Shown here piece after piece: positions 3,946 through 45,400 of a DNA stretch of 64,000 bases. The notes beneath the pieces were generated by a model, which worked only from the letters and a program-made list of their open reading frames with translations, made no database searches and was not told where the DNA came from. Made by a program: the position numbers and the translations under genes. Numbering within the stretch: position 1 is the first letter of the stretch; each line of letters opens with the position of its first letter. This DNA comes from Pseudomonadales bacterium (GTDB lineage: Bacteria; Pseudomonadota; Gammaproteobacteria; Pseudomonadales; GM7GCV1): NCBI GenBank assembly GCA_965204215.1, contig CBDBDZ010000014.1:1324588-1388587 (forward strand). Reading direction: 5' to 3'.

Positions 3946-5214
3946 ATGCCCACAACCCTATTTGAACCACTTGCTGCAAGGCAGCGCCCTGACCGGCTTG
4001 AGGGCTTTGTTGGGCAAGAGCATTTGCTGGGGCAGGGGAAACCACTGCATACATCATTGACAAGTGGAATCATCCACTCACTTATTTTGTGGGGACCTTC
4101 AGGTGTCGGGAAAACGACATTGGCTAAAATGATGGCGCATTATGCCAGTGCGGAATTTATGAGTCTGTCAGCAGTAATGTCAGGTGTTAAAGATATTCGT
4201 TCTATTATGCACATTGCAGAACAACGTCAGCAAGTCCATCAACAAAAGACTTTGCTATTTATTGATGAAGTGCATCGATTTAACAAATCACAACAAGATG
4301 CGTTTTTGCCTTATATTGAACAAGGCGTTGTTACCTTCATTGGAGCAACCACTGAAAACCCATCATTTGAATTAAATAATGCGCTGTTGTCGCGGGCTAG
4401 AGTTTATGTATTAAAGCCATTAACACCTGAAAATTTGCAATGTATTATTGGCAACGCGTTAGAAGCTAACCAATGGGATAATCATTTATCTCACGAACAA
4501 ATCAAACTCATTGCCCAGGCAGCCGATGGCGATGCACGTCGTGCATTAAATTTTGTCGAAATTTTGATGGATTTTGATAAAATAGATAATGATACATTCC
4601 TGAGCATTCTGGGCGATGGCAACAGACGTTTTGACAAAGGCGGTGATCAGTTTTACGACCAAATATCAGCATTACATAAATCCGTACGTGGTTCAGACCC
4701 TGACGCAGCACTTTATTGGTTGTGTAGAATGCTGGATGGCGGTTGTGACCCATTGTATCTGGCAAGGCGACTGGTACGTATGGCAGTGGAAGATATTGGC
4801 AATGCAGACCCTAGAGCTTTACAACTTTGCACTGATGCCGCGCAGGCGTATGAGCGTTTAGGCAGCCCAGAGGGTGAATTAGCACTGGCACAAGCGGCTA
4901 TTTATTTAGCGGTGGCAGCCAAAAGCAATGCTGTTTACACAGCGTATAACAGTGTAAATCATGACATCCGCCAGCAGCCCAGTTATGAAGTGCCCAAACA
5001 TTTACGCAATGCACCGACCAAATTAATGAAAAGTCTGGATCACGGGAAAGATTATCGCTATGCTCATAATGAGGCTAATGCCTTCGTAGACGGAGAAAAT
5101 TATTTTCCTGAAGGTATGCAAAAGCCGACTTATTACAAGCCGACAGATAGGGGGTTAGAGCAAAAAATTAAAGCCAAATTAATATTTTTAAATGAGCAAA
5201 ATAACAAAGCGTAA
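3946..5214 (+). CDS. rarA: Replication-associated recombination protein A (AAA+ ATPase RarA/MgsA)
   Basis: 422 aa with Walker A GPSGVGKTT and Walker B LFIDEVHRFNK. The C-terminal MgsA domain includes HKSVRGSDPDAALYWL and LRNAPTKLMK. Confidence 0.93.
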   Translation: MPTTLFEPLAARQRPDRLEGFVGQEHLLGQGKPLHTSLTSGIIHSLILWGPSGVGKTTLAKMMAHYASAEFMSLSAVMSGVKDIRSIMHIAEQRQQVHQQKTLLFIDEVHRFNKSQQDAFLPYIEQGVVTFIGATTENPSFELNNALLSRARVYVLKPLTPENLQCIIGNALEANQWDNHLSHEQIKLIAQAADGDARRALNFVEILMDFDKIDNDTFLSILGDGNRRFDKGGDQFYDQISALHKSVRGSDPDAALYWLCRMLDGGCDPLYLARRLVRMAVEDIGNADPRALQLCTDAAQAYERLGSPEGELALAQAAIYLAVAAKSNAVYTAYNSVNHDIRQQPSYEVPKHLRNAPTKLMKSLDHGKDYRYAHNEANAFVDGENYFPEGMQKPTYYKPTDRGLEQKIKAKLIFLNEQNNKA

Positions 5215-5896
5215 TGCTTTTAGAAATCCTGTTGCGAAATATGCTCGTACATTTAACAAAGCATCGGTGTATGTTGATCGCAAAAAAACTGCGAAATTAG
5301 ATATAGGGAAAAGTAAAGTACAGATTAATTCTAAACTGGAAAGACAAATTAATATCATCGGAGGAACGCATCGCAGCCGTAAAATAACATTCCTTGAGCA
5401 AGAAGGCTTAAGACCTACGGGCAGTCGCATTCGTGAAACCCTGTTTAATTGGCTCGACCCTTACATTGAAGGTGCCAGGGTACTGGATTTATTTGCAGGT
5501 TCTGGTATTTTGGGTTTTGAAGCTTCTTCAAGAAGAGCCAAACAAGTGATATTGATAGAGAACAATAATTTAACCTGCCATTATTTGCAAAAAACTATTG
5601 ATGAATTAGCCCTTGCCAATGTCTCGTTACAGAATGATGATGCCCAAAATTACCTGGAACATCTACCTGAAGAAGGTTTTGATATTATATTATTAGACCC
5701 ACCTTTTGATTTAGCCATACAAGAGCCGATACTGGACTTGATAATTGCTAAAGAAGGGTTAAAACCGAAAGGCTTGATTTATGTTGAAACCATTAAAAAT
5801 CAACCCCTTCGCTACAGTCACCAGTACCAGTTACTTAAAGAAAAGTCGAGTGGCAATGTTAAATTTTATTTATTACAATTAGAGAGTTTTGCATAA
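5192..5896 (+). CDS. rsmD: 16S rRNA (guanine966-N2)-methyltransferase RsmD with a ~50-aa basic N-terminal extension
   Basis: The core IIGGTHRSRKITF..GLRPTGSRIRETLFNWL..LDLFAGSGILGFEASSRRA..LLDPPF aligns with E. coli RsmD. The ATG at 5192 overlaps the rarA 3' end by 23 nt, and an alternative in-frame GTG lies at 5267. The last codons and the stop lie inside a repeat element. Confidence 0.85.
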   Translation: MSKITKRNAFRNPVAKYARTFNKASVYVDRKKTAKLDIGKSKVQINSKLERQINIIGGTHRSRKITFLEQEGLRPTGSRIRETLFNWLDPYIEGARVLDLFAGSGILGFEASSRRAKQVILIENNNLTCHYLQKTIDELALANVSLQNDDAQNYLEHLPEEGFDIILLDPPFDLAIQEPILDLIIAKEGLKPKGLIYVETIKNQPLRYSHQYQLLKEKSSGNVKFYLLQLESFA

Positions 5897-6276
5897 TTAC
5901 TGCGCTCGCTGCGCTCGTTAATACAGCGTTAAATTTTCGCTCAAAATGCTCATTTACTGCCAGTAAACTCCGCTTTTTCGTTCAAATTTGCCTTGTCTTG
6001 ACATCGCTCGTGACATTATCCTAGATTCCGTAGTTGAACCTGGAATTTACAGTTATTTTCAGGAAATAATGCAAGGCATGGCTTGCAGGTAATGGTTGTA
6101 GCCCTTACCAAAAGCCATAACGCAGCAGTGTGAACTGAAAAGGGCTGTAAAGCCAGGTAGCGGTTTGTAATTCACTTATGAAGTGAATCGAAGAATAAGC
6201 GTTTATCAATAACATTCAAACTCTTAGAAGTGAAATTAGCGTTCAACTGCGGAATCTAGGATTATGCAAAGCTCTC
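5882..6276. mobile_element. MITE-A: palindromic non-coding element (~155 bp without its insert), interrupted by a second MITE
   Basis: The left end GAGAGTTTTGCATAATTACTGCGCTCG is the inverted counterpart of the right end CGCTCGTGACATTAT[insert]GCAAAGCTCTC. Arms of the same element recur at 17662, 18211 and 19538. Confidence 0.65.
6020..6260. mobile_element. MITE-B: 241-bp element with 20-bp terminal inverted repeats and a 5-bp ATTAT target duplication
   Basis: CCTAGATTCCGTAGTTGAAC at 6020-6039 is the inverted counterpart of GTTCAACTGCGGAATCTAGG at 6241-6260, with one mismatch. ATTAT flanks both sides (6015-6019 and 6261-6265). Removing the element restores a MITE-A arm. Confidence 0.75.
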
Positions 6277-6284
6277 TAAATATT

Positions 6285-6313
6285 AATAAAATACGCAAGA
6301 GCGATATTTTATT
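6285..6313. repeat. Rep-D hairpin repeat, copy 1 (AATAAAATA-N11-TATTTTATT)
   Basis: AATAAAATACGCAAGAGCGATATTTTATT lies just 3' of aceA. Near-identical copies occur at 19904 and 25812. Confidence 0.55.
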
Positions 6314-6327
6314 GCGAAATCAATAAC

Positions 6328-16632: not shown

Positions 16633-17661
16633 ATGAATCAAAATCGTTTTCATCGACAATTTCCTGCAACCCGAATGCGAAGGTTGCGCCATACACAGTG
16701 GATGTTAAATATGCTGCAAGAAAATCATTTAACCAGCGCTGATTTAATTTTGCCACTGTTTGTACACGACAATCAACATAATGTTGGTATTGATGCAATG
16801 CCCGGTATTGAGCGTCATTCTATTAACTCGCTGCTTAAACAGGTAGAATGTGCGGTGAATTTACATATACCAGCTATAGCGTTATTCCCGGCTATTGATG
16901 AGTCATTGAAGAATGAGGAAGGAAGCGAAGCGTGGAATGAGAATAATCTGGTTTGCCGAGCGATAACAGCCATCAAAAAGGAATTTCCGGATATAGGAGT
17001 GATAGCCGACATAGCACTCGACCCATACACTGACCATGGTCAGGACGGTATTATGGTTGATGGTTATATAGCTAATGACCTGTCACTAAAAGCCTTGAAG
17101 AAACAGGCAAGAGTACAGGTTGACGCTGGCTGCGATATTTTGGCACCCTCAGATATGATGGATGGGCGCATTAAAGTAATACGTGATGATATGGAGCAAC
17201 TATCACAACACAATATGCATATTATGAGTTACGCTGCCAAGTATAATTCTGCGTTTTATGGTCCATTTAGAGATGCGGTTGGAGCTGGGAGTAAAAGCAA
17301 TGGAAATAGAAAAGCAGGAGGCAAATCCAGTTATCAAATCAATCCGGCCAATGCTGGCGAAGCAATGAATGAAATTGCTTTAGATATAGCAGAAGGAGCA
17401 GACAGCATTATAGTCAAACCGGGAATGCCTTATTTAGATATTATCAGACAGGTAAAAGACAGATTTGCAATCCCTGTTTTTGCGTATCAGGTTTCAGGGG
17501 AATACTCAATGATTCAAGCAGCAGCAAATAATCGTATGCTAGACTTGCAGCAAACTATGTTAGAAAGTTTGTTAGCGTTTAAACGAGCGGGAGCAACTGG
17601 AATTTGGACGTATTTTGCTTTAGAAGCAGCTCAGATAATTAATTCTGCTGGCAGTAAATGA
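16633..17661 (+). CDS. hemB: Porphobilinogen synthase (delta-aminolevulinate dehydratase), Asp-rich (Mg-type) metal site
   Basis: Contains FPATRMRRLR. DIALDPYTDHGQDG replaces the Cys-rich Zn site. The active-site region SYAAKYNSAFYGPFRD and IIVKPGMPYLDI are present. Confidence 0.93.
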   Translation: MNQNRFHRQFPATRMRRLRHTQWMLNMLQENHLTSADLILPLFVHDNQHNVGIDAMPGIERHSINSLLKQVECAVNLHIPAIALFPAIDESLKNEEGSEAWNENNLVCRAITAIKKEFPDIGVIADIALDPYTDHGQDGIMVDGYIANDLSLKALKKQARVQVDAGCDILAPSDMMDGRIKVIRDDMEQLSQHNMHIMSYAAKYNSAFYGPFRDAVGAGSKSNGNRKAGGKSSYQINPANAGEAMNEIALDIAEGADSIIVKPGMPYLDIIRQVKDRFAIPVFAYQVSGEYSMIQAAANNRMLDLQQTMLESLLAFKRAGATGIWTYFALEAAQIINSAGSK

Positions 17662-17718
17662 GCATTTTGAGCGAAAATTTAACGCTGTATTGGCGAGCGC
17701 AGTAATTATGCAAAACTC

Positions 17719-17720
<2 letters not shown>
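17662..17720 (+). repeat. MITE-A solo arm filling the hemB-glnB gap
   Basis: GCATTTTGAGCGAAAATTTAACGCTGTATTGGCGAGCGCAGTAATTATGCAAAACTCTC is the reverse complement of 5882-5950 apart from a CTGCGCTCG duplication there. Confidence 0.75.
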
Positions 17721-18066
<346 letters not shown>

Positions 18067-18210: not shown

Positions 18211-18253
18211 TTTAACGCTGTATTGACGAGCGCAGTAATTATGCAAAACTCTC
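18211..18253 (+). repeat. MITE-A solo arm (partial) overlapping the start of the yihY-family gene
   Basis: TTTAACGCTGTATTGACGAGCGCAGTAATTATGCAAAACTCTC. The ATG at 18241 inside the element terminus is the likely start codon. Confidence 0.7.
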
Positions 18254-19490: not shown

Positions 19491-19537
19491 CCTGTTATAT
19501 CCAAAAATAACTTCAAAACACCAGATTGTTCAAAAAA

Positions 19538-19727
19538 TTAACGCTGTATTGACAAGCACAGTAATTATACCATTCCTAAAAATATCAGTATGATTAGTGT
19601 TATAGATGATTTTAAAAACTTGAGAGGCAGGATAGCCTCGACAAAGCTACAGGGATGTACTTGTGCGGTTTTTAAAATCATCTATAACACTAAATATTTA
19701 TTGTGATTGGTATTATGCAAAACTCTC
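19538..19727 (+). mobile_element. MITE-A arm interrupted by MITE-C at the ATTAT site
   Basis: TTAACGCTGTATTGACAAGCACAGTAATTAT [143-bp insert] ATTATGCAAAACTCTC. This is the same position that MITE-B hit in the 5882-6276 copy. Confidence 0.7.
19569..19711. mobile_element. MITE-C: 143-bp hairpin element with an ATTAT target duplication
   Basis: Flanked by ATTAT at 19564-19568 and 19712-19716. Contains a perfect internal 25-bp inverted repeat, TAGTGTTATAGATGATTTTAAAAAC and its reverse complement. The outer ends ACCATTCCTAAAAATAT... and ...ATATTTATTGTGATTGGT are imperfectly inverted. Confidence 0.7.
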
Positions 19728-19963: not shown

Positions 19964-22537
19964 ATGATAAGAGACTATAACCCACAAGAAGTCGAAGCTG
20001 CGGCTCAGCAATATTGGCAAGAAGCGAATCAATTTGAAGTCAGTGAAGATAGCAGTAAAGAAAAATTTTATTGTTTGGCAATGTTTCCATACCCCAGCGG
20101 TAAATTGCATATGGGACATGTTCGCAATTACACAATAAGTGATGTAATAAGCCGCTTTCAAATCATGCTGGGTAAGAATGTGTTACACCCTATGGGTTGG
20201 GATGCTTTTGGACTGCCAGCAGAAAACGCCGCTGTACAAAATAAAACGGCTCCAGCTAAATGGACCTACGGTAATATTGAATATATGAAACGGCAACTCA
20301 ATAGACTGGGGTTTGGTTTTGACTGGTCACGTGAACTCGCCACCTGTAAGTCAGATTACTACCTCTGGGAACAATGGTTTTTTACCCGTCTGTTTGAAAA
20401 AGGGCTCGTTTACAAAAAAATGGCAATAGTAAACTGGGATCCGGTTGATCAAACTGTATTAGCAAATGAGCAAGTAATTGATGGCCGCGGCTGGCGTTCT
20501 GGTGCTGTTGTTGAACGCAAGGAAATACCTCAATGGTTTATTAAAATTACTGATTATGCTGAACAACTGCTTAATGATTTGGACCATCTTAAAGGCTGGC
20601 CTGAACAAGTCGTACAAATGCAACGTAACTGGATTGGTAAAAGCAAAGGCATGGAAATAGATTTTGATTTAGAGCAGTCAACAGCAGCTTACAGCCGGCT
20701 AAGAGTCTATACCACCAGGCCCGATACCTTAATGGGTGTAACCTATATAGCAATAGCGCCAGAACATCCTGTCAGTTTACACCTTGCAGAAACAAATAAC
20801 GAATTACAACAATTTATTACAGAATGCAAACAAAGTGCCTCGTCAGAAGCTGCTATTGCCAAACAAGAGAAAAAGGGCTGCGCCACAGGCATTAATGTGT
20901 GCCACCCCATTACGGGTGAATTATTGCCTGTATGGGTTGGTAATTTTGTGTTAATGGAATACGGTCACGGCGCGGTAATGTCAGTGCCGGCTCATGATCA
21001 ACGTGATTGGGGATTTGCCAGACGCTACAACCTGCCCATTATTCAGGTTATTGAGTCAAATATTGATGTCTCAACAGATACAGCAGCTATTGTTGAACGC
21101 GGTAAGCTGATTAATTCAGCTCAATTTAACGGGATGGATTTTGAAACAGCTTTTGCAGCAATAACAGAGATATTGGAACAAGCAGGAAAGGGCAATGCAA
21201 CAGTACAATACCGCTTGCGTGACTGGGGTGTTTCAAGGCAGCGTTACTGGGGAGCTCCTATTCCCATGTTAAAGCTGGATAGTGGTGAAGATATTGCCGT
21301 TCCTGCCAATCGCTTGCCTGTGCTGTTACCTGAAGATGTGATAATGGATGGGATTAATTCCCCGATTAAGCAAGATGTCAGTTGGCGACAAACAGATTAT
21401 AATGGTCAAGCAGCAGAGCGTGAAACAGATACCTTTGACACCTTTATGGAATCATCGTGGTACTACGCTCGCTATACCTGTCCTGATTACAATGAGGCAA
21501 TGCTTGATACTGACAAAGCCAATTACTGGTTGCCGGTAGATCAATATGTAGGTGGTATCGAACACGCTATTTTACATTTGCTCTACGCTCGTTTTTTCCA
21601 CAAACTAATGCGCGATGAAGGCATGGTAAATAGCGACGAGCCTTTCAAACGCCTGCTTTGTCAAGGCATGGTATTAGCCAATTCCTATAGCTATGAAGAG
21701 CAAGGCACTAAACAATGGATCAAGCCTGAATCAGTAGAACTGCAACACGATGCTAAAGGTAAAGTGATAGCTGCTATAGAGAAATCATCAGGTAAAAAGT
21801 TGAATATTGAAGGCATGACAAAAATGTCCAAGTCAAAAAATAACGGTGTAGACCCACAACAAGCTATAGAACAATACGGAGCTGATAGTGTACGCTTGTT
21901 TATTATGTTTGCAGCACCACCAGAACAAACTTTGGAATGGTCGGAAAGTGGGCTACAAGGCGCGTGGCGGTTTTTGCGTAGGCTCTGGTCAACTTGTCAA
22001 CAATATGCTAATGTAAAGAACTTACAAGAAATAGAAATATCTGCAATCCATAAAGGTTTGCGCCGCAAAACACATGAAACCATTAACAAAGTTAGCGACG
22101 ATTATCAACGCCGTCAAACCTATAACACCGCTATAGCCGCAGTGATGGAACTGCTAAATCAAACCCGAACAATACTGGATAAGGAAGGTGCCACCGCTGC
22201 CGTAGGTGAAGCATTAAATACAACGCTATTATTGTTAAACCCTGTTGCGCCCCATATTTGCCATCAGCTTTGGAGCGATTTGGGCAATTCAGGTAATATT
22301 GCTATTCAGCCCTGGCCAGAAGTGGATAGCAGCGCCTTAAGTGTCGATACTATTACTTATGTATTACAGGTTAATGGCAAATTACGCAGCAAAATAGAGG
22401 TGGCAGCAGGTAGCGCCCAATCAAGCGTCGAAGAACAAGCAAAAGCTGATAGCAACATTGTGACCTGGCTGGAAAGCAAGCAAATTGTCAAAGTGATTTT
22501 TGTACCCAATAAACTGGTTAATATTGTTGTGCAGTGA
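19964..22537 (+). CDS. leuS: Leucine--tRNA ligase
   Basis: Contains the HIGH motif ([15 protein letters not shown]), the KMSKS motif ([11 protein letters not shown]) and the CP1 editing domain. I place the start at ATG 19964 ([11 protein letters not shown]...) rather than the TTG at 19946. Confidence 0.95.
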
Positions 22538-22538
22538 T

Positions 22539-22585
22539 ACTATTCCTAAAAAATATTAGCATGACACTAAATATTCGTGATTGGT
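22539..22585. repeat. Mini MITE-C (47 bp) filling the leuS-lptE gap
   Basis: ACTATTCCTAAAAAATATTAGCATGACACTAAATATTCGTGATTGGT equals the two outer ends of MITE-C without the central 25-bp-stem hairpin. The lptE ATG follows immediately. Confidence 0.6.
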
Positions 22586-23089
22586 ATGAAACGGTTAATT
22601 AATATTTGTCTCATTTTTTCGTTTTTACTGCTGACTGGTTGCGGCTGGCAGTTTCGCGGTGCTGGAACTAACCAGCAGTACGACAATATTTTTATTGAAC
22701 TGTCAACACCGCAGTATCTAAACTCGCAGCAGCAGAACTTTGTTGAGCAATTAACACTATTTATTCAGCGCAATAACTCGCCTCAAGCGCCAACGCATTA
22801 TCAATTGACACTGGGCAATTATTGGATCGAAACACGCAATAATTCACTAAGTAGCAGTAATACAGTACGGCAGCGTATCTTGTCAGCCAACTTGACTTAT
22901 ATAGTTAATGGTAATACTTATGAACATAACGCTCAGCGTTACTACTTTGAAAACGAGGAGAATGTACTGGCATCTGAAAACGAAAAACAGCGTTTGTTAA
23001 AATCACTTAATGACGAGTTAAGCCGTGCGGTATGGAGGCAAATCCAGCTTCTGCAACAATTGTCGACAACTTCTGAAATTACTCAATAA
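22586..23089 (+). CDS. lptE: LPS-assembly lipoprotein LptE (RlpB)
   Basis: Lipoprotein signal with lipobox LLLTGCGWQFRG, compared with E. coli AGCGWHLRD. It occupies the conserved leuS-lptE-holA position. The track's GTG at 22577 lies inside the repeat, so I prefer ATG 22586. Confidence 0.8.
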   Translation: MKRLINICLIFSFLLLTGCGWQFRGAGTNQQYDNIFIELSTPQYLNSQQQNFVEQLTLFIQRNNSPQAPTHYQLTLGNYWIETRNNSLSSSNTVRQRILSANLTYIVNGNTYEHNAQRYYFENEENVLASENEKQRLLKSLNDELSRAVWRQIQLLQQLSTTSEITQ

Positions 23090-30430: not shown

Positions 30431-33400
30431 TACACTAACGCCAGCAAACCTGATTTTAACAGAAGGCGCGACAGCCAGCTTTACAGTGAGTTTAGGCAGT
30501 CAGCCTAATAACCCGGTAACGGTATCGGTGGCAAATCCAGATACCAGTCAATTAACAGTATCACCTCAGACATTAACATTTTCAACTTCTAATTTTAACA
30601 TAGCCCAGACAGTAACAATAGTAACAGTAGAAAATACAATTGTAGAAGCCAGTGAGACCGTGCCGATTCATTTAAACTTTATCAGCACAGATACGAATTT
30701 TAATACGTTGTCAGATACTGTGAGTGTGGTTATTATTGATAATGATACCGCCACATTTAGCGTAGCTGATGTGACGGTGTCAGAGACAGCAGGCGCTGCG
30801 ACTGTCACTGTTGCGCTGGACTTGCCGATTGAAGGCGGTGCTACACTTACCTTGATGAGTGCAGACTTTGCTCCGGTTGATGCTGCTGCCGGAAGTGATT
30901 ACAGCGCAACCACCGCAACGCTGTTTTTTGCCAGTAACAGCACCACAGCTCAAAGTTTCAGTGTTGGCATTATTGACGATACCCTGGTTGAAAACCTGGT
31001 TGAGGGCACTGAGCAGTTTCGCATTGATATCACTGCGGTTAACCCGGTTGAAGCTATTGCAGCAAGTGCATTTAATCTGGGTGATACGGCGACGGTATCC
31101 ATTACCGATAATGACACCACTACCATCACCATAGCAGATGTAAGTGCAGCAGAAGGTGATGGGCCTAACAATGTGACGGTCACCATTAGCTTGAGTAACC
31201 CGGTTGAGGGCGGACTGACTGCCACCATTGCCAGCAGCGGCAATTCAGCTCTCAGTGGCAGTGATTTTTCAGCACTGAGTCAGGTTATCAGTTTTGCCGA
31301 TAGCAGCACCGCCAGTAGCAGTGTGCAGTTGACTGTTTTAGGTGATGCAATTATTGAAGCAGATGAGACCTTGCAACTGTTTGTTGCCAGTGTTGCCGCA
31401 GCCGAGGCCTCGAACAGCCAGATACTCAGACAAACTGGCACCTTTACTATTGAAAATGATGATTTTGCTGCCATCACCATTGCTGATGCCAGTGGCAGTG
31501 AGTCGTCAGGCACTATCAGTGTCCGCTTTAATGTGAATTTGGCGGTTGCCGGTGGTTTTACCCTGACAGTGCAGAGCGATAGTGGCAGTGCGATAGAAGG
31601 CGTCGACTTTAGCTCTGTTGATTCACAGCAAGTTGCTTTTGCCGGTAGTGCCAATGAAACCCAGACCCTGGTATTGACAGTTACTAACGATACGATTATT
31701 GAGGCTAATGAAACCTTGCGTATTCGTATCAGTGCAGTAAACCCTGGTGTTGCACAGGCTGGCGATTTTAATATTAGCGACACCGCAACGCTGACGATAA
31801 TAAACGATGATACCGCCACATTTAGCGTAGCCGATGTGACGGTGTCAGAGACAGCTGGCGCTGCGACTGTCACTGTTGCGCTGGATTTGCCGATTGAAGG
31901 CGGTGCTACGCTTACCTTGATGAGTGCAGACTTTGCTCCGGTTGATGCCGCTGCTGGCAGCGATTACAGCGCAACCACAGCAACGCTGTTTTTTGCCAGT
32001 AACAGCACCACAGCTCAAAGTTTCAGTGTTGGCATTATTGACGATACCCTGGTTGAAAATCTGGTTGAGGGCACTGAGCAGTTTCGCATTGATATCACTG
32101 CGGTTAACCCGGTTGAAGCTATTGCAGCAAGTGCATTTAATCTGGGTGATACGGCGACGGTATCCATTACCGATAATGACACCACTACCATCACCATAGC
32201 AGATGTAAGTGCAGCAGAAGGTGATGGGCCTAACAATGTGACGGTCACCATTAGCCTGAGTAACCCGGTTGAGGGCGGACTGACTGCCACCATTGCCAGC
32301 AGTGGCAATTCAGCTCTCAGTGGCAGTGATTTTTCAGCACTGAGTCAGGTTATCAGTTTTGCCGATAGCAGCACCGCCAGTAGCAGTGTGCAGTTAACTG
32401 TTTTAGGTGATGCAATCATTGAAGCAGATGAGACCTTGCAACTGTTTGTTGCCAGTGTTGCTGCAGCCGAGGCCTCGAATAGCCAGATACTCAGACAAAC
32501 CGGCACCTTTACTATTGAAAATGATGATTTTGCTACTATTAGTATTGCTGATGTCAGTGCGAGTGAGTCGTCTGGCACTATCAGTATTGGCTTGAGTGTG
32601 GATTTGGCGGTTGCCGGTGGTTTTACCCTGACAGTACAGAGCGATAGTGGCAGTGCGATAGAAGGCGACGACTTTAGCTCTGTTGATTCACAGCAAGTTG
32701 CTTTTGCCGGTAGTGCCAATGAAACCCAGACCCTGGTATTGACAGTTACTAACGATACGATTATTGAAGCCAATGAAACCTTGCGTATTCGTATCAGTGC
32801 AGTCGACCCTGGTGTTGCACTGGCTGGCGATTTTAATATTAGCGACACCGCAACGCTGACGATAATAAACGATGATACCGCCACATTTAGCGTAGCTGAT
32901 GTGACGGTGTCAGAGACAGCTGGCGCTGCGACTGTCACTGTTGCGCTGGATTTGCCGATTGAAGGCGGTGCTACACTTACCTTGATGAGTGCAGACTTTG
33001 CTCCGGTTGATGCTGCTGCTGGCAGCGATTATAGCGCAACCACCGCAACGCTGTTTTTTGCCAGTAACAGCACCACAGCTCAAAGTTTCAGTGTTGGCAT
33101 TATTGACGATACCCTGGTTGAAAACCTGGTTGAGGGCACTGAGCAGTTTCGCATTGATATCACTGCGGTTAACCCGGTTGAAGCTATTGCAGCAAGTGCA
33201 TTTAATCTGGGTGATACGGCGACGCTATTCATTACCGATAATGATACCACTACCATCACCATAGCAGATGTAAGTGCAGCAGAAGGTGATGGGCCTAACA
33301 ATGTGACGGTCACCATTAGCTTGAGTAACCCGGTTGAGGGCGGACTGACTGCCACCATTGCCAGCAGTGGCAATTCAGCTCTCAGTGGCAGTGATTTTTC

Positions 33401-36400
33401 AGCATTGAGTCAGGTTATTAGTTTTGCCGATAGCAGCACTGCCAGTAGCAGTGTGCAGTTAACTATTTTAGGTGATGCAATCATTGAAGCAGATGAGACC
33501 TTGCAACTGTTTGTTGCCAGTGTTGCCGCAGCCGAGGCCTCGAACAGCCAGATACTCAGACAAACTGGCACCTTTACTATTGAAAATGATGATTTTGCTG
33601 CCATCACCATTGCTGATGCCAGTGGCAGTGAGTCGTCAGGCACTATCAGTGTCCGCTTTAATGTGAATTTGGCGGTTGCCGGTGGTTTTACCCTGACAGT
33701 GCAGAGCGATAGTGGCAGTGCGATAGAAGGCGACGACTTTAGCTCTGTTGATTCACAGCAAGTTGCTTTTGCCGGTAGTGCCAATGAAACCCAGACCCTG
33801 GTATTGACAGTTACTAACGATACGATTATTGAAGCCAATGAAACCTTGCGTATTCGTATCAGTGCAGTCGACCCTGGTGTTGCACAGGCTAGTGATTTTA
33901 ATATTAGCGACACCGCAACGCTGACGATAATAAACGATGATACCGCCACATTTAGCGTAGCTGATGTGACGGTGTCAGAGACAGCTGGCGCTGCGACTGT
34001 CACTGTTGCGCTGGATTTGCCGATTGAAGGCGGTGCTACACTTACCTTGATGAGTGCAGACTTTGCTCCGGTTGATGCTGCTGCTGGCAGCGATTACAGC
34101 GCAACCACCGCAACGCTGTTTTTTGCCAGTAACAGCACCACAGCTCAAAGTTTCAGTGTTGGCATTATTGACGATACCCTGGTTGAAAATCTGGTTGAGG
34201 GCACTGAGCAGTTTCGCATTGATATCACTGCGGTTAACCCGGTTGAAGCTATTGCAGCAAGTGCATTTAATCTGGGTGATACGGCGACGGTATCCATTAC
34301 CGATAATGACACCACTACCATCACCATAGCAGATGTAAGTGCAGCAGAAGGTGATGGGCCTAACAATGTGACGGTCACCATTAGCCTGAGTAACCCGGTT
34401 GAGGGCGGACTGACTGCCACCATTGCCAGCAGCGGCAATTCAGCTCTCAGTGGCAGTGATTTTTCAGCACTGAGTCAGGTTATCAGTTTTGCCGATAGCA
34501 GCACCGCCAGTAGCAGTGTGCAGTTGACTGTTTTAGGTGATGCAATCATTGAAGCAGATGAGACCTTGCAACTGTTTGTTGCCAGTGTTGCCGCAGCCGA
34601 GGCCTCGAACAGCCAGATACTCAGACAAACTGGCACCTTTACTATTGAAAATGATGATTTTGCTGCCATCACCATTGCTGATGCCAGTGGCAGTGAGTCG
34701 TCAGGCACTATCAGTGTCCGCTTTAATGTGAATTTGGCGGTTGCCGGTGGTTTTACCCTGACAGTGCAGAGCGATAGTGGCAGTGCGATAGAAGGCGACG
34801 ACTTTAGCTCTGTTGATTCACAGCAAGTTGCTTTTGCCGGTAGTGCCAATGAAACCCAGACCCTGGTATTGACAGTTACTAACGATACGATTATTGAAGC
34901 CAATGAAACCTTGCGTATTCGTATCAGTGCAGTAAACCCTGGTGTTGCACTGGCTAGCGATTTTAATATTAGCGACACCGCAACGCTGACGATAATAAAC
35001 GATGATACCGCTACCTTTAGCGTAGCTGATGTGACGGTGTCAGAGACAGCTGGCGCTGCGACTGTCACTGTTGCGCTGGATTTGCCGATTGAAGGCGGTG
35101 CTACACTTACCTTGATGAGTGCAGACTTTGCTCCGGTTGATGCTGCTGCTGGCAGCGATTACAGCGCAACCACCGCAACGCTGTTTTTTGCCAGTAACAG
35201 CACCACAGCTCAAAGTTTCAGTGTTGGCATTATTGACGATACCCTGGTTGAAAATCTGGTTGAGGGCACTGAGCAATTTCGTATTGATATCAGCGCGGTT
35301 AACCCGGTTGAAGCTATTGCAGCAAGTGCGTTTAATCTGGGTGATACGGCGACGGTATCCATTACCGATAATGACACCACTACCATCACCATAGCAGATG
35401 TAAGTGCAGCAGAAGGCAATGGGCCTAACAATGTGACGGTCACCATTAGCTTGAGTAACCCGGTTGAGGGCGGACTGACTGCGACCATTGCCAGCAGTGA
35501 AAACTCGGCTCTCAGTGGCAGTGACTTTTCAACACTGAGTCAGGTTATCAGTTTTGCCGATAGCAGCACCGCCAGTAGCAGTGTGCAGTTAACTATTTTA
35601 GGTGATGCAATCATTGAAGCAGATGAGACCTTGCAACTGTTTGTTGCCAGTGTTGCTGCAGCCGAGGCCTCGAATAGCCAGATACTCAGACAAACTGGCA
35701 CCTTTACTATTGAAAATGATGATTTTGCTGCCATCACCATTGCTGATGTCAGTGGCAGTGAGTCTGGGACTATCAGTATTGGCTTGAGTGTGAATTTGGC
35801 GGTTGCCGGTGGGTTTACCCTGACAGTGCAGAGCGATAGTGGTAGCGCGATAGAAGGCGACGACTTTAGCTCTGTTGATTCACAGCAAGTTGCTTTTGCC
35901 GGTAGTGCCAATGAAACCCAGACCCTGGTATTGACAGTTACTAACGATACGATTATTGAAGCCAATGAAACCTTGCGTATTCGTATCAGTGCAGTCGACC
36001 CTGGTGTTGCACTGGCTGGCGATTTTAATATTAGCGACACCGCAACGCTGACGATAATAAACGATGATACCGCCACATTTAGCGTAGCTGATGTGACGGT
36101 GTCAGAGACAGCTGGCGCTGCCACTATTTCTGTTACTCTGGACTTGCCGATTGAAGGAGGGGCTACGCTTACCTTGATGAGTGCAGACTTTGCTCCGGTT
36201 GATGCCGCTGCTGGCAGCGATTATAGCGCAACCACCGCAACGCTGTTTTTTGCCAGTAACAGCACCACAGCTCAAAGTTTCAGTGTTGGCATTATTGACG
36301 ATACCCTGGTTGAAAACCTGGTTGAGGGCACTGAGCAATTTCGTATTGATATCAGCGCGGTTAACCCGGTTGAAGCTATTGCAGCAAGTGCGTTTAATCT

Positions 36401-39400
36401 GGGTGATACGGCGACGGTATTCATTACCGATAATGATACCACTACCATCACCGTAGCAGATGTGAGTGCAGCAGAAGGCAATGTGTCTAACAATGTGACG
36501 GTCACCATTAGCCTGAGTAACCCGGTTGAGGGCGGACTGACTGCGACCATTGCCAGCAGTGAAAACTCGGCTCTCAGTGGCGATGACTTTTCAGCACTGA
36601 GTCAGGTTATCAGTTTTGCCGATAGCAGCACTGCCAGTAGCAGTGTGCAGTTGACTGTTTTAGGTGATGCAATTATTGAAGCAGATGAGACCTTGCAACT
36701 GTTTGTTGCCAGTGTTGCCGCAGCCGAGGCCTCGAATAGCCAGATACTCAGACAAACTGGTACCTTTAGCATTGTAAATGATGATTTTGCTGCCATCACC
36801 ATTGATGATGTCAGTGGCAGTGAGTCTGGGACTATCAGTATTGGCTTGAGTGTGAATTTGGCGGTTGCCGGTGGTTTTACCCTGACAGTACAGAGCGATA
36901 GTGGCAGTGCAGTAGAGGGCGTCGACTTTAGCTCTGCTGACTCTCAGCAGGTTGCTTTTGCCGGTAGTGCCAATGAAACCCAGACCCTGGTATTGACAGT
37001 TACTAACGATACGATTATTGAGGCCAATGAAACCTTGCGTATTCGTATCAGTGCAGTCGACCCTGGTGTTGCACAGGCTGGCGATTTTAATATTAGCGAC
37101 ACCGCAACGCTGACGATAATAAACGATGATACCGCTACCTTTAGCGTAGCTGATGTGACGGTGTCAGAGACAGCTGGCGCTGCGACTGTCACTGTTGCGC
37201 TGGATTTGCCGATTGAAGGCGGTGCTACACTTACCTTGATGAGTGCAGACTTTGCTCCGGTTGATGCTGCTGCTGGCAGCGATTACAGCGCAACCACCGC
37301 AACGCTGTTTTTTGCCAGTAACAGCACCACAGCTCAAAGTTTCAGTGTTGGCATTATTGACGATACCCTGGTTGAAAATCTGGTTGAGGGCACTGAGCAG
37401 TTTCGCATTGATATCACTGCGGTTAACCCGGTTGAAGCTATTGCAGCAAGTGCATTTAATCTGGGTGATACGGCGACGGTATCCATTACCGATAATGACA
37501 CCACTACCATCACCATAGCAGATGTAAGTGCAGCAGAAGGCAATGGGCCTAACAATGTGACGGTCACCATTAGCTTGAGTAACCCGGTTGAGGGCGGACT
37601 GACAGCAACCATTGCCAGCAGTGGCAATTCAGCTCTCAGTGGCAGTGATTTTTCAGCACTGAGTCAGGTTATCAGTTTTGCCGATAGCAGCACCGCCAGT
37701 AGCAGTGTGCAGTTAACTGTTTTAGGTGATGCAATTATTGAAGCAGATGAGACCTTGCAACTGTTTGTTGCCAGTGTTGCCGCAGCCGAGGCCTCGAACA
37801 GCCAGATACTCAGACAAACTGGCACCTTTACTATTGAAAATGATGATTTTGCTGCCATCACCATTGATGATGTCAGTGGCAGTGAGTCTGGGACTATCAG
37901 TATTGGCTTGAGTGTGAATTTGGCGGTTGCCGGTGGTTTTACCCTGACAGTACAGAGCGATAGTGGCAGTGCGATAGAAGGCGTCGACTTTAGCTCTGTT
38001 GATTCACAGCAAGTTGCTTTTGCCGGTAGTGCCAATGAAACCCAGACCCTGGTATTGACAGTTACTAACGATACGATTATTGAAGCCAATGAAACCTTGC
38101 GTATTCGTATCAGTGCAGTCGACCCTGGTGTTGCACAGGCTGGCGATTTTAATATTAGCGACACCGCAACGCTGACGATAATAAACGATGATAGCGCCAC
38201 ATTTAGCGTAGCTGATGTGACGGTGTCAGAGACAGCTGGCGCTGCGACTGTCACTGTTGCGCTGGATTTGCCGATTGAAGGCGGTGCTACACTTACCTTG
38301 ATGAGTGCAGACTTTGCTCCGGTTGATGCTGCTGCCGGAAGTGATTACAGCGCAACCACAGCAACGCTGTTTTTTGCCAGTAACAGCACCACAGCTCAAA
38401 GTTTCAGTGTTGGCATTATTGACGATACCCTGGTTGAAAACCTGGTTGAGGGCACTGAGCAGTTTCGCATTGATATCACTGCGGTTAACCCGGTTGAAGC
38501 TATTGCAGCAAGTGCGTTTAATCTGGGTGATACGGCGACGGTATCCATTACCGATAATGACACCACTACCATCACCATAGCAGATGTAAGTGCAGCAGAA
38601 GGTGATGGGCCTAACAATGTGACGGTCACCATTAGCCTGAGTAACCCGGTTGAGGGCGGACTGACTGCGACCATTGCCAGCAGCGGCAATTCAGCTCTCA
38701 GTGGCAGTGATTTTTCAGCACTGAGTCAGGTTATCAGTTTTGCCGATAGCAGCACCGCCAGTAGCAGTGTGCAGTTAACTGTTTTAGGTGATGCAATTAT
38801 TGAAGCAGATGAGACCTTGCAACTGTTTGTTGCCAGTGTTGCCGCAGCCGAGGCCTCGAATAGCCAGATACTCAGACAGACTGGGACTTTTAGCATTGAA
38901 AATGATGATTTTGCTGCCATCACCATTGCTGATGTCAGTGGCAGTGAGTCTGGGACTATCAGTATTGGCTTGAGTGTGAATTTGGCGGTTGCCGGTGGTT
39001 TTACCCTGACAGTACAGAGCGATAGTGGCAGTGCAGTAGAGGGCGTCGACTTTAGCTCTGCTGACTCGCAGCAGGTTGCTTTTGCCGGTAGTGCCAATGA
39101 AACCCAGACCCTGGTATTGACACTTACTAACGATACGGTTATTGAGGCCAATGAAACCTTGCGTATTCGTATCAGTGCAGTCGAGCCTGGTGTTGCACAG
39201 GCTGGCGATTTTAATATTAGCGACACCGCAACGCTGACGATAATAAACGATGATAGCGCCACATTTAGCGTAGCTGATGTGACGGTGTCAGAGACAGCTG
39301 GCGCTGCCACTATTTCTGTTACTCTGGACTTGCCGATTGAAGGAGGGGCTACGCTTACCTTGATGAGTGCAGACTTTGCTCCGGTTGATGCCGCTGCTGG

Positions 39401-42400
39401 CAGCGATTATAGCGCAACCACCGCAACGCTGTTTTTTGCCAGTAACAGCACCACAGCTCAAAGTTTCAGTGTTGGCATTATTGACGATACCCTGGTTGAA
39501 AACCTGGTTGAGGGCACTGAGCAATTTCGTATTGATATCAGCGCGGTTAACCCGGTTGAAGCTATTGCAGCAAGTGCGTTTAATCTGGGTGATACGGCGA
39601 CGGTATTCATTACCGATAATGATACCACTACCATCACCATAGCAGATGTAAGTGCAGCAGAAGGTGATGGGCCTAACAATGTGACGGTCACCATTAGCTT
39701 GAGTAACCCGGTTGAGGGCGGACTGACTGCGACCATTGCCAGCAGTGAAAACTCGGCTCTCAGTGGCAGTGACTTTTCAGCACTGAGTCAGGTTATCAGT
39801 TTTGCCGATAGCAGCACCGCCAGTAGCAGTGTGCAGTTAACTATTTTAGGTGATGCAATCATTGAAGCAGATGAGACCTTGCAACTGTTTGTTGCCAGTG
39901 TTGCTGCAGCCGAGGCCTCGAATAGCCAGATACTCAGACAAACTGGCACCTTTACTATTGAAAATGATGATTTTGCTGCCATCACCATTGCTGATGTCAG
40001 TGGCAGTGAGTCTGGGACTATCAGTATTGGCTTGAGTGTGAATTTGGCGGTTGCCGGTGGGTTTACCCTGACAGTGCAGAGCGATAGTGGTAGCGCGATA
40101 GAAGGCGACGACTTTAGCTCTGTTGATTCACAGCAAGTTGCTTTTGCCGGTAGTGCCAATGAAACCCAGACCCTGGTATTGACAGTTACTAACGATACGA
40201 CTATTGAGGCCAATGAAACCTTGCGTATTCGTATCAGTGCAGTCGAGCCTGGTGTTGCACAGGCTGGCGATTTTAATATTAGCGACACCGCAACGCTGAC
40301 GATAATAAACGATGATAGCGCCACATTTAGCGTAGCTGATGTGACGGTGTCAGAGACAGCTGGCGCTGCCACTATTTCTGTTACTCTGGACTTGCCGATT
40401 GAAGGAGGGGCTACGCTTACCTTGATGAGTGCAGACTTTGCTCCGGTTGATGCCGCTGCTGGCAGCGATTATAGCGCAACCACCGCAACGCTGTTTTTTG
40501 CCAGTAACAGCACCACAGCTCAAAGTTTCAGTGTTGGCATTATTGACGATACCCTGGTTGAAAACCTGGTTGAGGGCACTGAGCAATTTCGTATTGATAT
40601 CAGCGCGGTTAACCCGGTTGAAGCTATTGCAGCAAGTGCGTTTAATCTGGGTGATACGGCGACGGTATTCATTACCGATAATGATACCACTACCATCACC
40701 GTAGCAGATGTGAGTGCAGCAGAAGGCAATGTGTCTAACAATGTGACGGTCACCATTAGCTTGAGTAACCCGGTTGAGGGCGGACTGACTGCGACCATTG
40801 CCAGCAGTGGCAATTCAGCTCTCAGTGGCAGTGATTTTTCAGCACTGAGTCAGGTTATCAGTTTTGCCGATAGCAGCACCGCCAGTAGCAGTGTGCAGTT
40901 AACTGTTTTAGGTGATGCAATTATTGAAGCAGATGAGACCTTGCAACTGTTTGTTGCCAGTGTTGCCGCAGCCGAGGCCTCGAACAGCCAGATACTCAGA
41001 CAAACTGGCACCTTTACTATTGAAAATGATGATTTTGCTGCCATCACCATTGCTGATGCCAGTGGCAGTGAGTCGTCAGGCACTATCAGTGTCCGCTTTA
41101 ATGTGAATTTGGCGGTTGCCGGTGGTTTTACCCTGACAGTACAGAGCGATAGTGGCAGTGCAGTAGAGGGCGTCGACTTTAGCTCTGTTGATTCACAGCA
41201 AGTTGCTTTTGCCGGTAGTGCCAATGAAACCCAGACCCTGGTATTGACAGTTACTAACGATACGATTATTGAAGCCAATGAAACCTTGCGTATTCGTATC
41301 AGTGCAGTAAACCCTGGTGTTGCACTGGCTAGTGATTTTAATATTAGCGACACCGCAACGCTGACGATAATAAACGATGATAGCGCCACATTTAGCGTAG
41401 CTGATGTGGCGGTGTCAGAGACAGCTGGCGCTGCCACTATTTCTGTTACTCTGGACTTGCCGATTGAAGGTGGGGCTACGCTTACCTTGATGAGTGCAGA
41501 CTTTGCTCCGGTTGATGCCGCTGCCGGAAGTGATTACAGCGCAACCACAGCAACGCTGTTTTTTGCCAGTAACAGCACCACAGCTCAAAGTTTCAGTGTT
41601 GGCATTATTGACGATACCCTGGTTGAAAATCTGGTTGAGGGCACTGAGCAATTTCGTATTGATATCAGCGCGGTTAACCCGGTTGAAGCTATTGCAGCAA
41701 GTGCGTTTAATCTGGGTGATACGGCGACGGTATCCATTACCGATAATGACACCACTACCATCACCATAGCAGATGTAAGTGCAGCAGAAGGTGATGGGCC
41801 TAACAATGTGACGGTCACCATTAGCTTGAGTAACCCGGTTGAGGGCGGACTGACTGCGACCATTGCCAGCAGTGGCAATTCAGCTCTCAGTGGCAGTGAT
41901 TTTTCAGCACTGAGTCAGGTTATCAGTTTTGCCGATAGCAGCACCGCCAGTAGCAGTGTGCAGTTAACTGTTTTAGGTGATGCAATTATTGAAGCAGATG
42001 AGACCTTGCAACTGTTTGTTGCCAGTGTTGCCGCAGCCGAGGCCTCGAACAGCCAGATACTCAGACAAACTGGCACCTTTACTATTGAAAATGATGATTT
42101 TGCTGCCATCACCATTGCTGATGCCAGTGGCAGTGAGTCGTCAGGCACTATCAGTGTCCGCTTTAATGTGAATTTGGCGGTTGCCGGTGGTTTTACCCTG
42201 ACAGTACAGAGCGATAGTGGCAGTGCGATAGAAGGCGACGACTTTAGCTCTGTTGATTCACAGCAAGTTGCTTTTGCCGGTAGTGCCAATGAAACCCAGA
42301 CCCTGGTATTGACAGTTACTAACGATACGATTATTGAGGCCAATGAAACCTTGCGTATTCGTATCAGTGCAGTCGACCCTGGTGTTGCACAGGCTGGCGA

Positions 42401-45400
42401 TTTTAATATTAGCGACACCGCAACGCTGACGATAATAAACGATGATAGCGCCACATTTAGCGTAGCTGATGTGACGGTGTCAGAGACAGCTGGCAATACC
42501 AATATCACTGTTTCCTTAAATCTGCCGATTGAAGGTGGGGCTACGCTTACCTTGATGAGTGCAGACTTTGCTCCGGTTGATGCTGCTGCCGGAAGTGATT
42601 ACAGCGCAACCACAGCAACGCTGTTTTTTGCCAGTAACAGCACCACAGCTCAAAGTTTCAGTGTTGGCATTATTGACGATACCCTGGTTGAAAATCTGGT
42701 TGAGGGCACTGAGCAGTTTCGCATTGATATCACTGCGGTTAACCCGGTTGAAGCTATTGCAGCAAGTGCATTTAATCTGGGTGATACGGCGACGGTATCC
42801 ATTACCGATAATGACACCACTACCATCACCATAGCAGATGTAAGTGCAGCAGAAGGTGATGGGCCTAACAATGTGACGGTCACCATTAGCCTGAGTAACC
42901 CGGTTGAGGGCGGACTGACTGCGACCATTGCCAGCAGCGGCAATTCAGCTCTCAGTGGCAGTGATTTTTCAGCACTGAGTCAGGTTATCAGTTTTGCCGA
43001 TAGCAGCACTGCCAGTAGCAGTGTGCAGTTAACTGTTTTAGGTGATGCAATTATTGAAGCAGATGAGACCTTGCAACTGTTTGTTGCCAGTGTTGCCGCA
43101 GCCGAGGCCTCGAACAGCCAGATACTCAGACAAACTGGTACCTTTAGCATTGTAAATGATGATTTTGCTACTATTAGTATTGCTGATGTCAGTGCGAGTG
43201 AGTCGTCTGGCACTATCAGTATTCAGTTTAGTGTGGATTTGGCGGTTGCCGGTGGGTTTACCCTGACAGTACAGAGCGATAGTGGCAGTGCGATAGAAGG
43301 CGACGACTTTAGCTCTGTTGATTCACAGCAAGTTGCTTTTGCCGGTAGTGCCAATGAAACCCAGACCCTGGTATTGACAGTTACTAACGATACGACTATT
43401 GAAGCCAATGAAACCTTGCGTATTCGTATCAGTGCAGTCGACCCTGGTGTTGCACTGGCTGGCGATTTTAATATTAGCGACACCGCAACGCTGACGATAA
43501 TAAACGATGATACCGCTACCTTTAGCGTAGCTGATGTGACGGTGTCAGAGACAGCAGGCGCTGCGACTGTCACTGTTGCGCTGGACTTGCCGATTGAAGG
43601 AGGGGCTACACTTACCTTGATGAGTGCAGACTTTGCTCCGGTTGATGCCGCTGCTGGCAGCGATTACAGCGCAACCACAGCAACGCTGTTTTTTGCCAGT
43701 AACAGCACCACAGCTCAAAGTTTCAGTGTTGGCATTATTGACGATACCCTGGTTGAAAACCTGGTTGAGGGCACTGAGCAATTTCGTATTGATATCACTG
43801 CGGTTAACCCGGTTGAAGCTATTGCAGCAAGTGCGTTTAATCTGGGTGGTACGGCGACGGTATTCATTACCGATAATGATACCACTACCATCACCGTAGC
43901 AGATGTGAGTGCAGCAGAAGGCAATGTGTCTAACAATGTGACGGTCACCATTAGCTTGAGTAACCCGGTTGAGGGCGGACTGACTGCGACCATTGCCAGC
44001 AGTGAAAACTCGGCTCTCAGTGGCAGTGACTTTTCAGCACTGAGTCAGGTTATCAGTTTTGCCGATAGCAGCACCGCCAGTAGCAGTGTGCAGTTAACTA
44101 TTTTAGGTGATGCAATCATTGAAGCAGATGAGACCTTGCAACTGTTTGTTGCCAGTGTTGCTGCAGCCGAGGCCTCGAATAGCCAGATACTCAGACAAAC
44201 TGGCACCTTTACTATTGAAAATGATGATTTTGCTGCCATCACCATTGCTGATGTCAGTGGCAGTGAGTCTGGGACTATCAGTATTGGCTTGAGTGTGAAT
44301 TTGGCGGTTGCCGGTGGGTTTACCCTGACAGTGCAGAGCGATAGTGGTAGCGCGATAGAAGGCGACGACTTTAGCTCTGTTGATTCACAGCAAGTTGCTT
44401 TTGCCGGTAGTGCCAATGAAACCCAGACCCTGGTATTGACAGTTACTAACGATACGACTATTGAGGCCAATGAAACCTTGCGTATTCGTATCAGTGCAGT
44501 CGAGCCTGGTGTTGCACAGGCTGGCGATTTTAATATTAGCGACACCGCAACGCTGACGATAATAAACGATGATAGCGCCACATTTAGCGTAGCTGATGTG
44601 ACGGTGTCAGAGACAGCTGGCGCTGCCACTATTTCTGTTACTCTGGACTTGCCGATTGAAGGAGGGGCTACGCTTACCTTGATGAGTGCAGACTTTGCTC
44701 CGGTTGATGCCGCTGCTGGCAGCGATTATAGCGCAACCACCGCAACGCTGTTTTTTGCCAGTAACAGCACCACAGCTCAAAGTTTCAGTGTTGGCATTAT
44801 TGACGATACCCTGGTTGAAAACCTGGTTGAGGGCACTGAGCAATTTCGTATTGATATCAGCGCGGTTAACCCGGTTGAAGCTATTGCAGCAAGTGCGTTT
44901 AATCTGGGTGATACGGCGACGGTATTCATTACCGATAATGATACCACTACCATCACCGTAGCAGATGTGAGTGCAGCAGAAGGCAATGTGTCTAACAATG
45001 TGACGGTCACCATTAGCTTGAGTAACCCGGTTGAGGGCGGACTGACTGCGACCATTGCCAGCAGTGGCAATTCAGCTCTCAGTGGCAGTGATTTTTCAGC
45101 ACTGAGTCAGGTTATCAGTTTTGCCGATAGCAGCACCGCCAGTAGCAGTGTGCAGTTAACTGTTTTAGGTGATGCAATCATTGAAGCAGATGAGACCTTG
45201 CAACTGTTTGTTGCCAGTGTTGCCGCAGCCGAGGCCTCGAATAGCCAGATACTCAGACAAACTGGTACCTTTAGCATTGTAAATGATGATTTTGCCAACA
45301 TTAGCATTGCCGATGCCAGTGGCAGTGAATCGGCTACTATCAGTATTCAGTTTAGTGTGGATTTGGCGGTTGCCGGTGGTTTTACCCTGACAGTACAGAG

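Follow-up and report, generated by a model that had tools for sequence, protein, structure and literature searches.

ERIC/IRU sequences of the Enterobacteriaceae are imperfect palindromes of about 130-140 bp with short terminal inverted repeats (TIRs), which are intergenic, overlap gene ends, form long hairpins, and occur in truncated and interrupted variants (PMC2229807, PMC2759123, PMC3184786). Repeated insertion at one position of the repeated palindromic REP sequence has been described for IS1397/ISKpn1 (listed among the references of PMC3184786). MITEPsy1 and MITEPsy2 of Pseudomonas syringae are small miniature transposable elements with inverted repeats (MITEs) of genomes and plasmids, often nested in other mobile elements, and duplicate 4 nt (CTAG/YTAA) or a stretch of unknown length (PMC3189936). 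Here, we describe the hairpin elements A, B, and C in a 64,000-nt stretch of the genome of a Pseudomonadales bacterium (contig CBDBDZ010000014.1, positions 1,324,588-1,388,587, forward strand; the whole stretch is called the window below). B and C are inserted at the mirror-equivalent position of the terminal repeat of different copies of A. We consider that these are three layered families of non-coding MITEs that depend on a transposase, and that the shared site is probably due to a preference for a target pentamer combined with tolerance of insertions in a neutral repeat.

Element A resembles ERIC in size, hairpin form, position at gene ends, and the presence of truncated and interrupted variants. 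Longer ERICs carrying insertions of about 70 bp at specific internal sites have reportedly been described by Wilson & Sharp in 2006 and Cromie et al. in 1997. ERIC duplicates TA, whereas A copies of the window type duplicate 5 bp, and the hosts also differ, being Enterobacteriaceae and Vibrionaceae for ERIC and Pseudomonadales, Oceanospirillales, and Halomonadaceae for A. The sequences and ends of MITEPsy1 and MITEPsy2 differ from those of A, B, and C; considered as the identity of the Pseudomonas plasmid matches reported below, they were rejected because their ends are not those of A.

Nested insertions in the window

B and C each lie between duplicated ATTAT pentamers, 11 bases inside a terminus of A. 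The corresponding empty site reads CAGTAATTATGCAAAACTCTC in the uninterrupted A fragments (17700-17720 and 18233-18253), and the intact terminus of the full A copy (5882) carries its mirror image, GAGAGTTTTGCATAATTACTG. Since uninterrupted A termini show the empty site, B and C are simple insertions with a 5-bp duplication. Once B and one ATTAT are taken out, a full A copy is restored, which matched the covariance model of the family (31 homologues) from end to end with 112 bits (E = 7e-32), and the junction between ...GCATAAT and GTCACGAGCG in the restored copy is contiguous in all homologues. These results confirm that B and C are genuine insertions, located in different A copies at mirror-equivalent positions of the terminal repeat, and the event is ordinary nested MITE transposition following a target-site rule. 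The elements are arranged as follows.

5882-5963, minus strand: full copy of A, arm with AACGCTGTATT...GAGCGCAG and the terminus GAGAGTTTTGCATAAT (5882-5897)
5964-6019, minus strand: full copy of A, other arm, ending in the duplicated ATTAT (6015-6019)
6020-6260, plus strand: element B, a 241-bp MITE with 20-bp TIRs, CCTAGATTCCGTAGTTGAAC / GTTCAACTGCGGAATCTAGG
6261-6276, minus strand: second ATTAT copy (6261-6265) and the remaining A terminus, ATTATGCAAAGCTCTC
17648-17720, plus strand: 73-nt half copy of A located between convergent genes and running from the apical loop as far as the terminus
18211-18253, plus strand: 43-nt A fragment, TTTAACGCTGTATTGACGAGCGCAGTAATTATGCAAAACTCTC, with the ATTAT site intact, upstream of a yihY-like gene
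19533-19568, plus strand: A fragment, inner part, up to and including ATTAT 19564-19568 (left copy of the C duplication)
19569-19711, plus strand: element C, a 143-bp hairpin, between ATTAT 19564-19568 and 19712-19716
19712-19727, plus strand: right ATTAT copy (19712-19716) and the A terminus, ATTATGCAAAACTCTC
22539-22585, plus strand: mini-C, a 47-bp internal-deletion derivative of C

The initial annotation had placed a 241-bp B between ATTAT 6015-6019 and 6261-6265 inside A, and C (19569-19711) between ATTAT pentamers at the homologous position. Both sets of coordinates hold, the former through the excision that restores A and the latter by comparison with empty A termini, and the use of the same 5-bp site by B and C is borne out by the sequence of that site in uninterrupted copies. 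The copies of A required partial revision: the full copy (5882-6276) and the fragment at 18211 stand, the longest of the proposed solo arms starts at 17648 and not at 17662, and the fourth fragment starts at about 19533 and not at 19538. A is palindromic as proposed, although the palindrome is imperfect and its arms differ in a conserved manner.

The segment 5882-6276 might instead be a stray 16-nt A terminus beside an independent B, or a composite produced by recombination between copies. This would agree with the flanks of the full A copy (AATTA / TAAAT), which give no clean target duplication of its own, and with the existence of A fragments truncated to many different lengths. However, exact deletion of B and one ATTAT yields the colinear full-length family match given above, and a perfect 5-bp repeat is also generated by the B family elsewhere. 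Thus, this origin is already disfavoured, and we regard it as highly improbable.

In the window, A is represented by one full copy and by truncated copies at gene ends, and the uninterrupted element is a hairpin MITE of about 140 bp. The 16-mer GAGAGTTTTGCATAAT occurs exactly at 5882 on the plus strand and at 17720, 18253, and 19727 on the minus strand, and with one mismatch at 6276 (minus strand). Allowing up to three mismatches, six matches were found against 1.2 expected, and none of 100 shuffled sequences reached six. The A copy at 5882 also has a 9-bp tandem duplication, CTGCGCTCG, located at 5900-5917. Read as the reverse complement, the arm of this copy at 5964-6019 gives GTCACGAGCGATGTCAAGACAAGGCAAATTTGAACGAAAAAGCGGAGTTTA, the conserved left core of the A family; homologues showed that this odd arm is the conserved second half of A. 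A match of the A model extending to 17563 inside hemB was rejected as a degenerate arm, as it corresponds to the conserved C-terminus of HemB, and the boundary was set at 17648. In viral contigs, the 16-mer terminus gave 31 single matches, judged to be at chance level for the size of the collection (no expected count being reported).

The ends of C, ACCATTCC... and ...GATTGGT, form imperfect inverted repeats, and a perfect 26-bp inverted repeat lies inside the element (19594-19619 / 19668-19693; DNA fold z = -8.8). The 47-bp mini version of C that had been proposed at 22539-22585 was recovered: when the ends of C are joined, 42 of its 47 positions agree with them (z = 9 relative to 47-mers drawn at random from the window). 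Its flanks, GTGAT and ATGAA, form no perfect repeat; they agree at the central TGA. With imperfect TIRs, an ATTAT duplication, and a second, deleted copy, C shows the features of a MITE.

Element B and the choice of the site

The TIRs of B (6020-6039 / 6241-6260) match at 19 of 20 bp, with no such pair expected by chance, and the ends occur nowhere else in the window. B is a single-copy element there, forms a long hairpin (DNA fold z = -7.6), and lies in a region (5897-6327) without an open reading frame (ORF) of 80 or more amino acids. A metagenome scan with the 20-bp B end returned at least 120 contigs, and the figures given below for the B family refer to the matches listed. Of 39 complete copies measured, 20 have a length of 236 bp, and the 5-bp duplications are perfect in 29. 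The metagenomic copies are about 60% identical to B over the whole length, the first 128 nt being free of gaps, and their stems change in a compensatory manner. Many contigs stop about 100 nt inside the element, as expected of a repeat that breaks assemblies. B is short and non-coding, with TIRs, a fixed-length duplication, and many copies at unrelated loci, and thus has the features of a MITE.

The flanks of the B family revealed a precise target. Across 82 distinct 5' flanks, the pattern W-T-N-A-W fits 76, with T at -4 in 82 of 82, A at -2 in 81, and W at -5 and -1 in 79; ATTAT was used seven times and ATAAT six times. Beyond the pentamer, the flank logo contains less than 0.15 bits at positions -6 to -15.

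ISEcp1 makes a 5-bp target duplication, and the target duplications of the IS1380 family are 4-5 bp. Over its first 9 nt, CCTAGATTC, the B end is identical to the left end of ISEcp1, which we checked on pCTX-M3, where it lies 150 bp upstream of a gene annotated as 'IS1380-like element ISEcp1 family transposase'. The right end of ISEcp1, GGAATTTAGG, lies 1656 bp from the left end, and that of B reads ...GGAATCTAGG. B resembles ISEcp1/IS1380 in ends that start with CC, reading CCTAGATTC..., and finish with ...GGAAT(C/T)TAGG, in the 5-bp duplication, and in AT-rich targets; it differs in lacking a transposase gene, in length (241 bp vs 1656 bp), and in that end similarity is limited to the first 9-10 nt. 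The strict W-T-N-A-W rule was derived here for the B family; to our knowledge, it has not been described for ISEcp1, the pCTX-M3 copy of which follows TGCAG. Judged from its ends, B is an IS1380-type MITE. The result also provides a precise rule (W-T-N-A-W with a 5-bp duplication) for an abundant family of IS1380-type MITEs, and shows that coincidences of the 'same site' can arise from a pentamer preference.

Some B copies are themselves interrupted. In eight loci (L099, L107, L118, L124, L128, L176, L193, and L197), the apical loop is broken after ...GCAGCTAATGG by TTAGCCCGCATTTCTCATCAGGGG..., and the copy in L107 is 399 bp long instead of the usual 236 bp, which indicates that nesting is common in the B family as well.

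The relatives of A carry CATAAC/GTTATG at the site, and the homologous pentamer ATAAC/GTTAT does not fit W-T-N-A-W. The A variant of the window carries CATAAT/ATTATG, which fits the B target. We propose that B, with its IS1380/ISEcp1-type ends, would be moved by a transposase supplied in trans, which would cut W-T-N-A-W pentamers with a 5-bp stagger and so duplicate the pentamer. C, a second hairpin MITE, likewise makes a 5-bp duplication, and we infer that the same enzyme, or a related one, probably moves it. In an AT-rich lineage, the change of the A terminus to CATAAT/ATTATG would have created a preferred pentamer in DNA where insertion is cost-free, and B and C may then have inserted independently into the mirror-equivalent pentamer of two A copies. 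The cause would be target preference together with survival in neutral repeat DNA, and not recognition of A itself. In none of the 120 listed metagenomic contigs does an A-like element lie beside a B end, and since no B copy outside the window was found in an A-like element, pentamer preference with tolerance is favoured over homing to A.

Alternatively, A could be a true hot spot, the hairpin of which attracts the transposase or transposases of B and C through a cruciform, bending, or a bound host protein, as in the insertion of IS1397/ISKpn1 into REP. The intergenic DNA of the window amounts to about 3.8 kb of 64 kb and holds about 185 W-T-N-A-W sites, of which five are at A termini, and two of three insertions of the B/C type are found at these five. 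About five W-T-N-A-W pentamers are available in a full A copy, two of them the terminal ATAAT/ATTAT, and yet both insertions are in a terminal one. Copies of A from Nitrincola and an Oceanospirillales metagenome-assembled genome (MAG) also have an extra mini-hairpin of about 18 nt near the homologous position. On the other hand, the absence of an A-like core beside the B ends of the 120 contigs and the silence of the flank logo outside the pentamer argue against a hot spot; the window count is a small one and was made post hoc, and purifying selection in such a gene-dense genome would yield the same pattern. IS1397 and ISKpn1 belong to the IS3 family, are autonomous, and recognise the palindrome itself. 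For B, the evidence is of a bare pentamer preference, and the listed copies elsewhere are not in palindromic repeats. Taken together, a hot spot seems rather unlikely, and its earlier suggestion found no counterpart outside the window.

Several points nevertheless weigh against pentamer preference with tolerance as the full explanation. The placement of two of three insertions in five of about 185 sites has a probability of approximately 0.003 if intergenic W-T-N-A-W sites are used uniformly, although calculated post hoc, and would suggest some attraction of insertions to A, which we do not favour over the pentamer preference. C had no relatives in 1.36 Mb of fetched DNA (chance seeds only), and its two copies are both in the window. 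The link between C and an enzyme of the B type rests on two sites, of which one, that of mini-C, is imperfect and fits W-T-N-A-W in part. Finally, neither the window nor any fetched locus yielded an autonomous element or a transposase gene bearing B or C ends. Among the 120 listed loci, no B ends were 1-3 kb apart or adjoined a transposase-sized ORF, a weak negative because assemblies break in repeats. The shared transposase specificity that had been suggested for B and C is therefore upheld for B, by the fit of its flanks and its 5-bp duplications; C is compatible with it, as ATTAT fits the rule and mini-C does so partly.

The two shortest A fragments (18211 and 19533) start at or beside the internal TTTAA/ATTAA pentamer of A, which fits W-T-N-A-W. 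Earlier insertions with subsequent deletion might have left these truncations as scars.

The A family and a possible core motif common to A and B

When a genome collection with a single representative of each species was searched for a motif internal to A, 61 loci were returned, about 49 of which are clear homologues of A, an element of 139-149 bp. The hosts include Pseudomonas, Halomonas, Nitrincola (five copies), an Oceanospirillales MAG (four copies), Endozoicomonas, Zooshikella, Zhongshania, and others. BLAST also placed A on plasmids of Pseudomonas and Halomonas, some of them conjugative (16 plasmid records, H11-H26), and a partial match was found on a plasmid of Candidatus Fukatsuia (Enterobacterales). 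These results indicate that A is an imperfect-palindrome MITE family widespread in Gammaproteobacteria and their plasmids; no description of it was found in the literature searched with core sequence strings.

Copies of A with GAGACC-type ends are flanked by differing 5-bp repeats (TTACT, AAAGG, TCAGT, and GAGAC), and Halomonas-type copies sit at TA/CTAG. The varied target duplications suggest that A spreads by transposition, apparently by different enzymes in different lineages. No parent insertion sequence adjoining A ends was found. The end of ISPsy19 (IS5 family), GAGGGTGTAGACAAAAT, resembles some A-family ends, such as GAGGGTGTTTACAAATT in L059 (PMC3189936).

The A family forms a long imperfect hairpin, and compensatory changes between genera affect 30 of its 43 predicted pairs. 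Conservation reaches 93% in the left core, CGAGCGAAGGCAAGACAAGGC, a segment that had no role in the retrieval of the copies, compared with 57% in the termini. These features, together with the position of A copies abutting or overlapping gene ends, raise the question of whether A is primarily a selected structured nucleic acid, either a DNA structure or, as has been proposed for ERIC, an RNA hairpin that is co-transcribed. Insertions would then survive only where the fold stays intact, and the shared site would reflect structural tolerance; B and C are strongly self-folding by the z scores given above, and a composite would still form a branched hairpin. However, A copies were oriented without bias relative to flanking genes (nine co-directional sense and seven antisense), which weakens a strand-specific RNA role, and the target-site duplications of A copies point to spread by transposition. 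Rfam gave no match at the gathering score in the window and none at E values up to 10 for 5850-6300, and an A homologue gave only a chance-level match to dinG. In addition, the 5-bp duplications of B and C would be left unexplained. We consider structural tolerance an improbable basis for the shared site, and retain pentamer preference in a neutral repeat.

Compared by eye, the centres of ERIC and A are similar, with GGAGyTTAC...GTAArTGA followed by TGAGC and AACGC. The covariance model of A scored 10.5 bits (E = 0.83) on an E. coli ERIC, rank 3 in 49 kb, and pairwise local alignments of A and ERIC gave p = 0.03-0.29 against shuffles. The identification of A as ERIC was therefore rejected, as homology was not significant by the covariance model or by shuffle-controlled alignment. 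The larger interest of the locus lies in the host element A, which extends from Pseudomonas to Halomonas and conjugative plasmids with an interior far better conserved than its ends. Should this conservation be functional, A would offer, alongside ERIC, a tractable system in which to study the role of such hairpins.

Four copies of A (L050, L076, L077, and L090; Nitrincola sp. OZ251574 and Oceanospirillales MAG-10) share the extra mini-hairpin of about 18 nt, TATCATACCCTCTGGGTA, at most a few bases from the counterpart of the ATTAT site, and those in L076 and L077 have a further extra hairpin in the apical loop. Because these extra hairpins are shared, composite variants seem to have been amplified. 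In Pseudomonas (P. mandelii and five unnamed strains; L045, L055, L065, L074, L086, and L091), a single copy of A occupies one conserved locus with near-identical flanks, and looks like an old fixed insertion that is vertically inherited, unlike the multi-copy elements of Nitrincola and Halomonas.

The covariance model of A also matches metagenomic B copies at a homologous internal position, with E values down to 1.7e-5. All of the top ten matches are IS1380-type MITEs, namely nine B copies and one variant with related ends (L120). The motif found in both A and B consists of AAGGC, a 7-bp stem, the complementary stem, and AACGC, and in the window it occupies the following positions.

6072-6123: core motif in B
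5926-5994, minus strand: core motif in A

Counts of the strict AAGGC/AACGC motif were 42 for the A loci, 29 for the B loci, and two for the window (one in A and one in B), against 2, 2, and 0 in the shuffled sequences. As controls, 281 kb of unrelated viral loci contained two and 50 kb of E. coli none. The reciprocal model of the B core weakly matched 7 of 12 A copies on the correct strand, and also matched two differently ended hairpins in one Endozoicomonas locus (L046:582-709 and L046:4228-4373) with 42 and 39 bits. One match of the A model is an IS1380-type MITE without the motif, so hairpin shape alone adds to the scores, and for this reason a core shared by A and B is regarded as suggestive only. 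The B copies showing the motif include those in L098, L103, and L150. The description of the elements as unrelated thus requires qualification, as the interior of B seems to have this structured core in common with A.

As a more speculative view, which we hold to be doubtful, the core (...CAAGGC, a stem of 7-9 bp, an apical hairpin, the stem, and AACGC(Y)G...) could be a portable module repeatedly fitted with the ends of unrelated transposase families. The core is associated with GAGACC-type ends and 5-bp duplications in the A copies of the window, Nitrincola, and Zhongshania, with GGCTTTGTA-type ends at TA/CTAG in Halomonas, with IS1380-type ends in the B family, and with two further end types in the Endozoicomonas locus. 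If so, the core and not the ends would be under selection and could be a structured RNA or DNA element, which would have spread over Gammaproteobacteria, plasmids, and marine sediment communities via whichever transposase was present; B in A would then be one member of a superfamily inserted into another.

Gene ends and host context

The elements of the window also contribute to the ends of genes. The last four codons and the stop codon of an rsmD-like ORF (5192-5896) lie inside the A terminus (5882-5896), and those of hemB lie within the A half copy (17648-17661). The stop codon of the P-II (glnB-like) gene at 17719-17721 overlaps an A terminus. Mini-C fills the entire gap between the leuS stop codon (22535-22537) and the lptE ATG (22586), and its flanks form the TGA and the ATG (22535-22588). 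For annotation, odd gene ends are thereby explained, the stops of rsmD and hemB being supplied by a repeat.

LeuS is 63-67% identical to that of Microbulbifer and Cellvibrionaceae, and HemB has no relative above 64%, indicating a host lineage without a close sequenced relative. Additionally, 30742-47760 is occupied by a giant tandem array, in which a unit of 1062-1065 bp, with a length divisible by three, is present in 16 copies. Its copies are 93-99% identical over most of the array and 72-76% for the last copy of the second register, and it is probably a very large repeat-containing gene of the surface or adhesin type.

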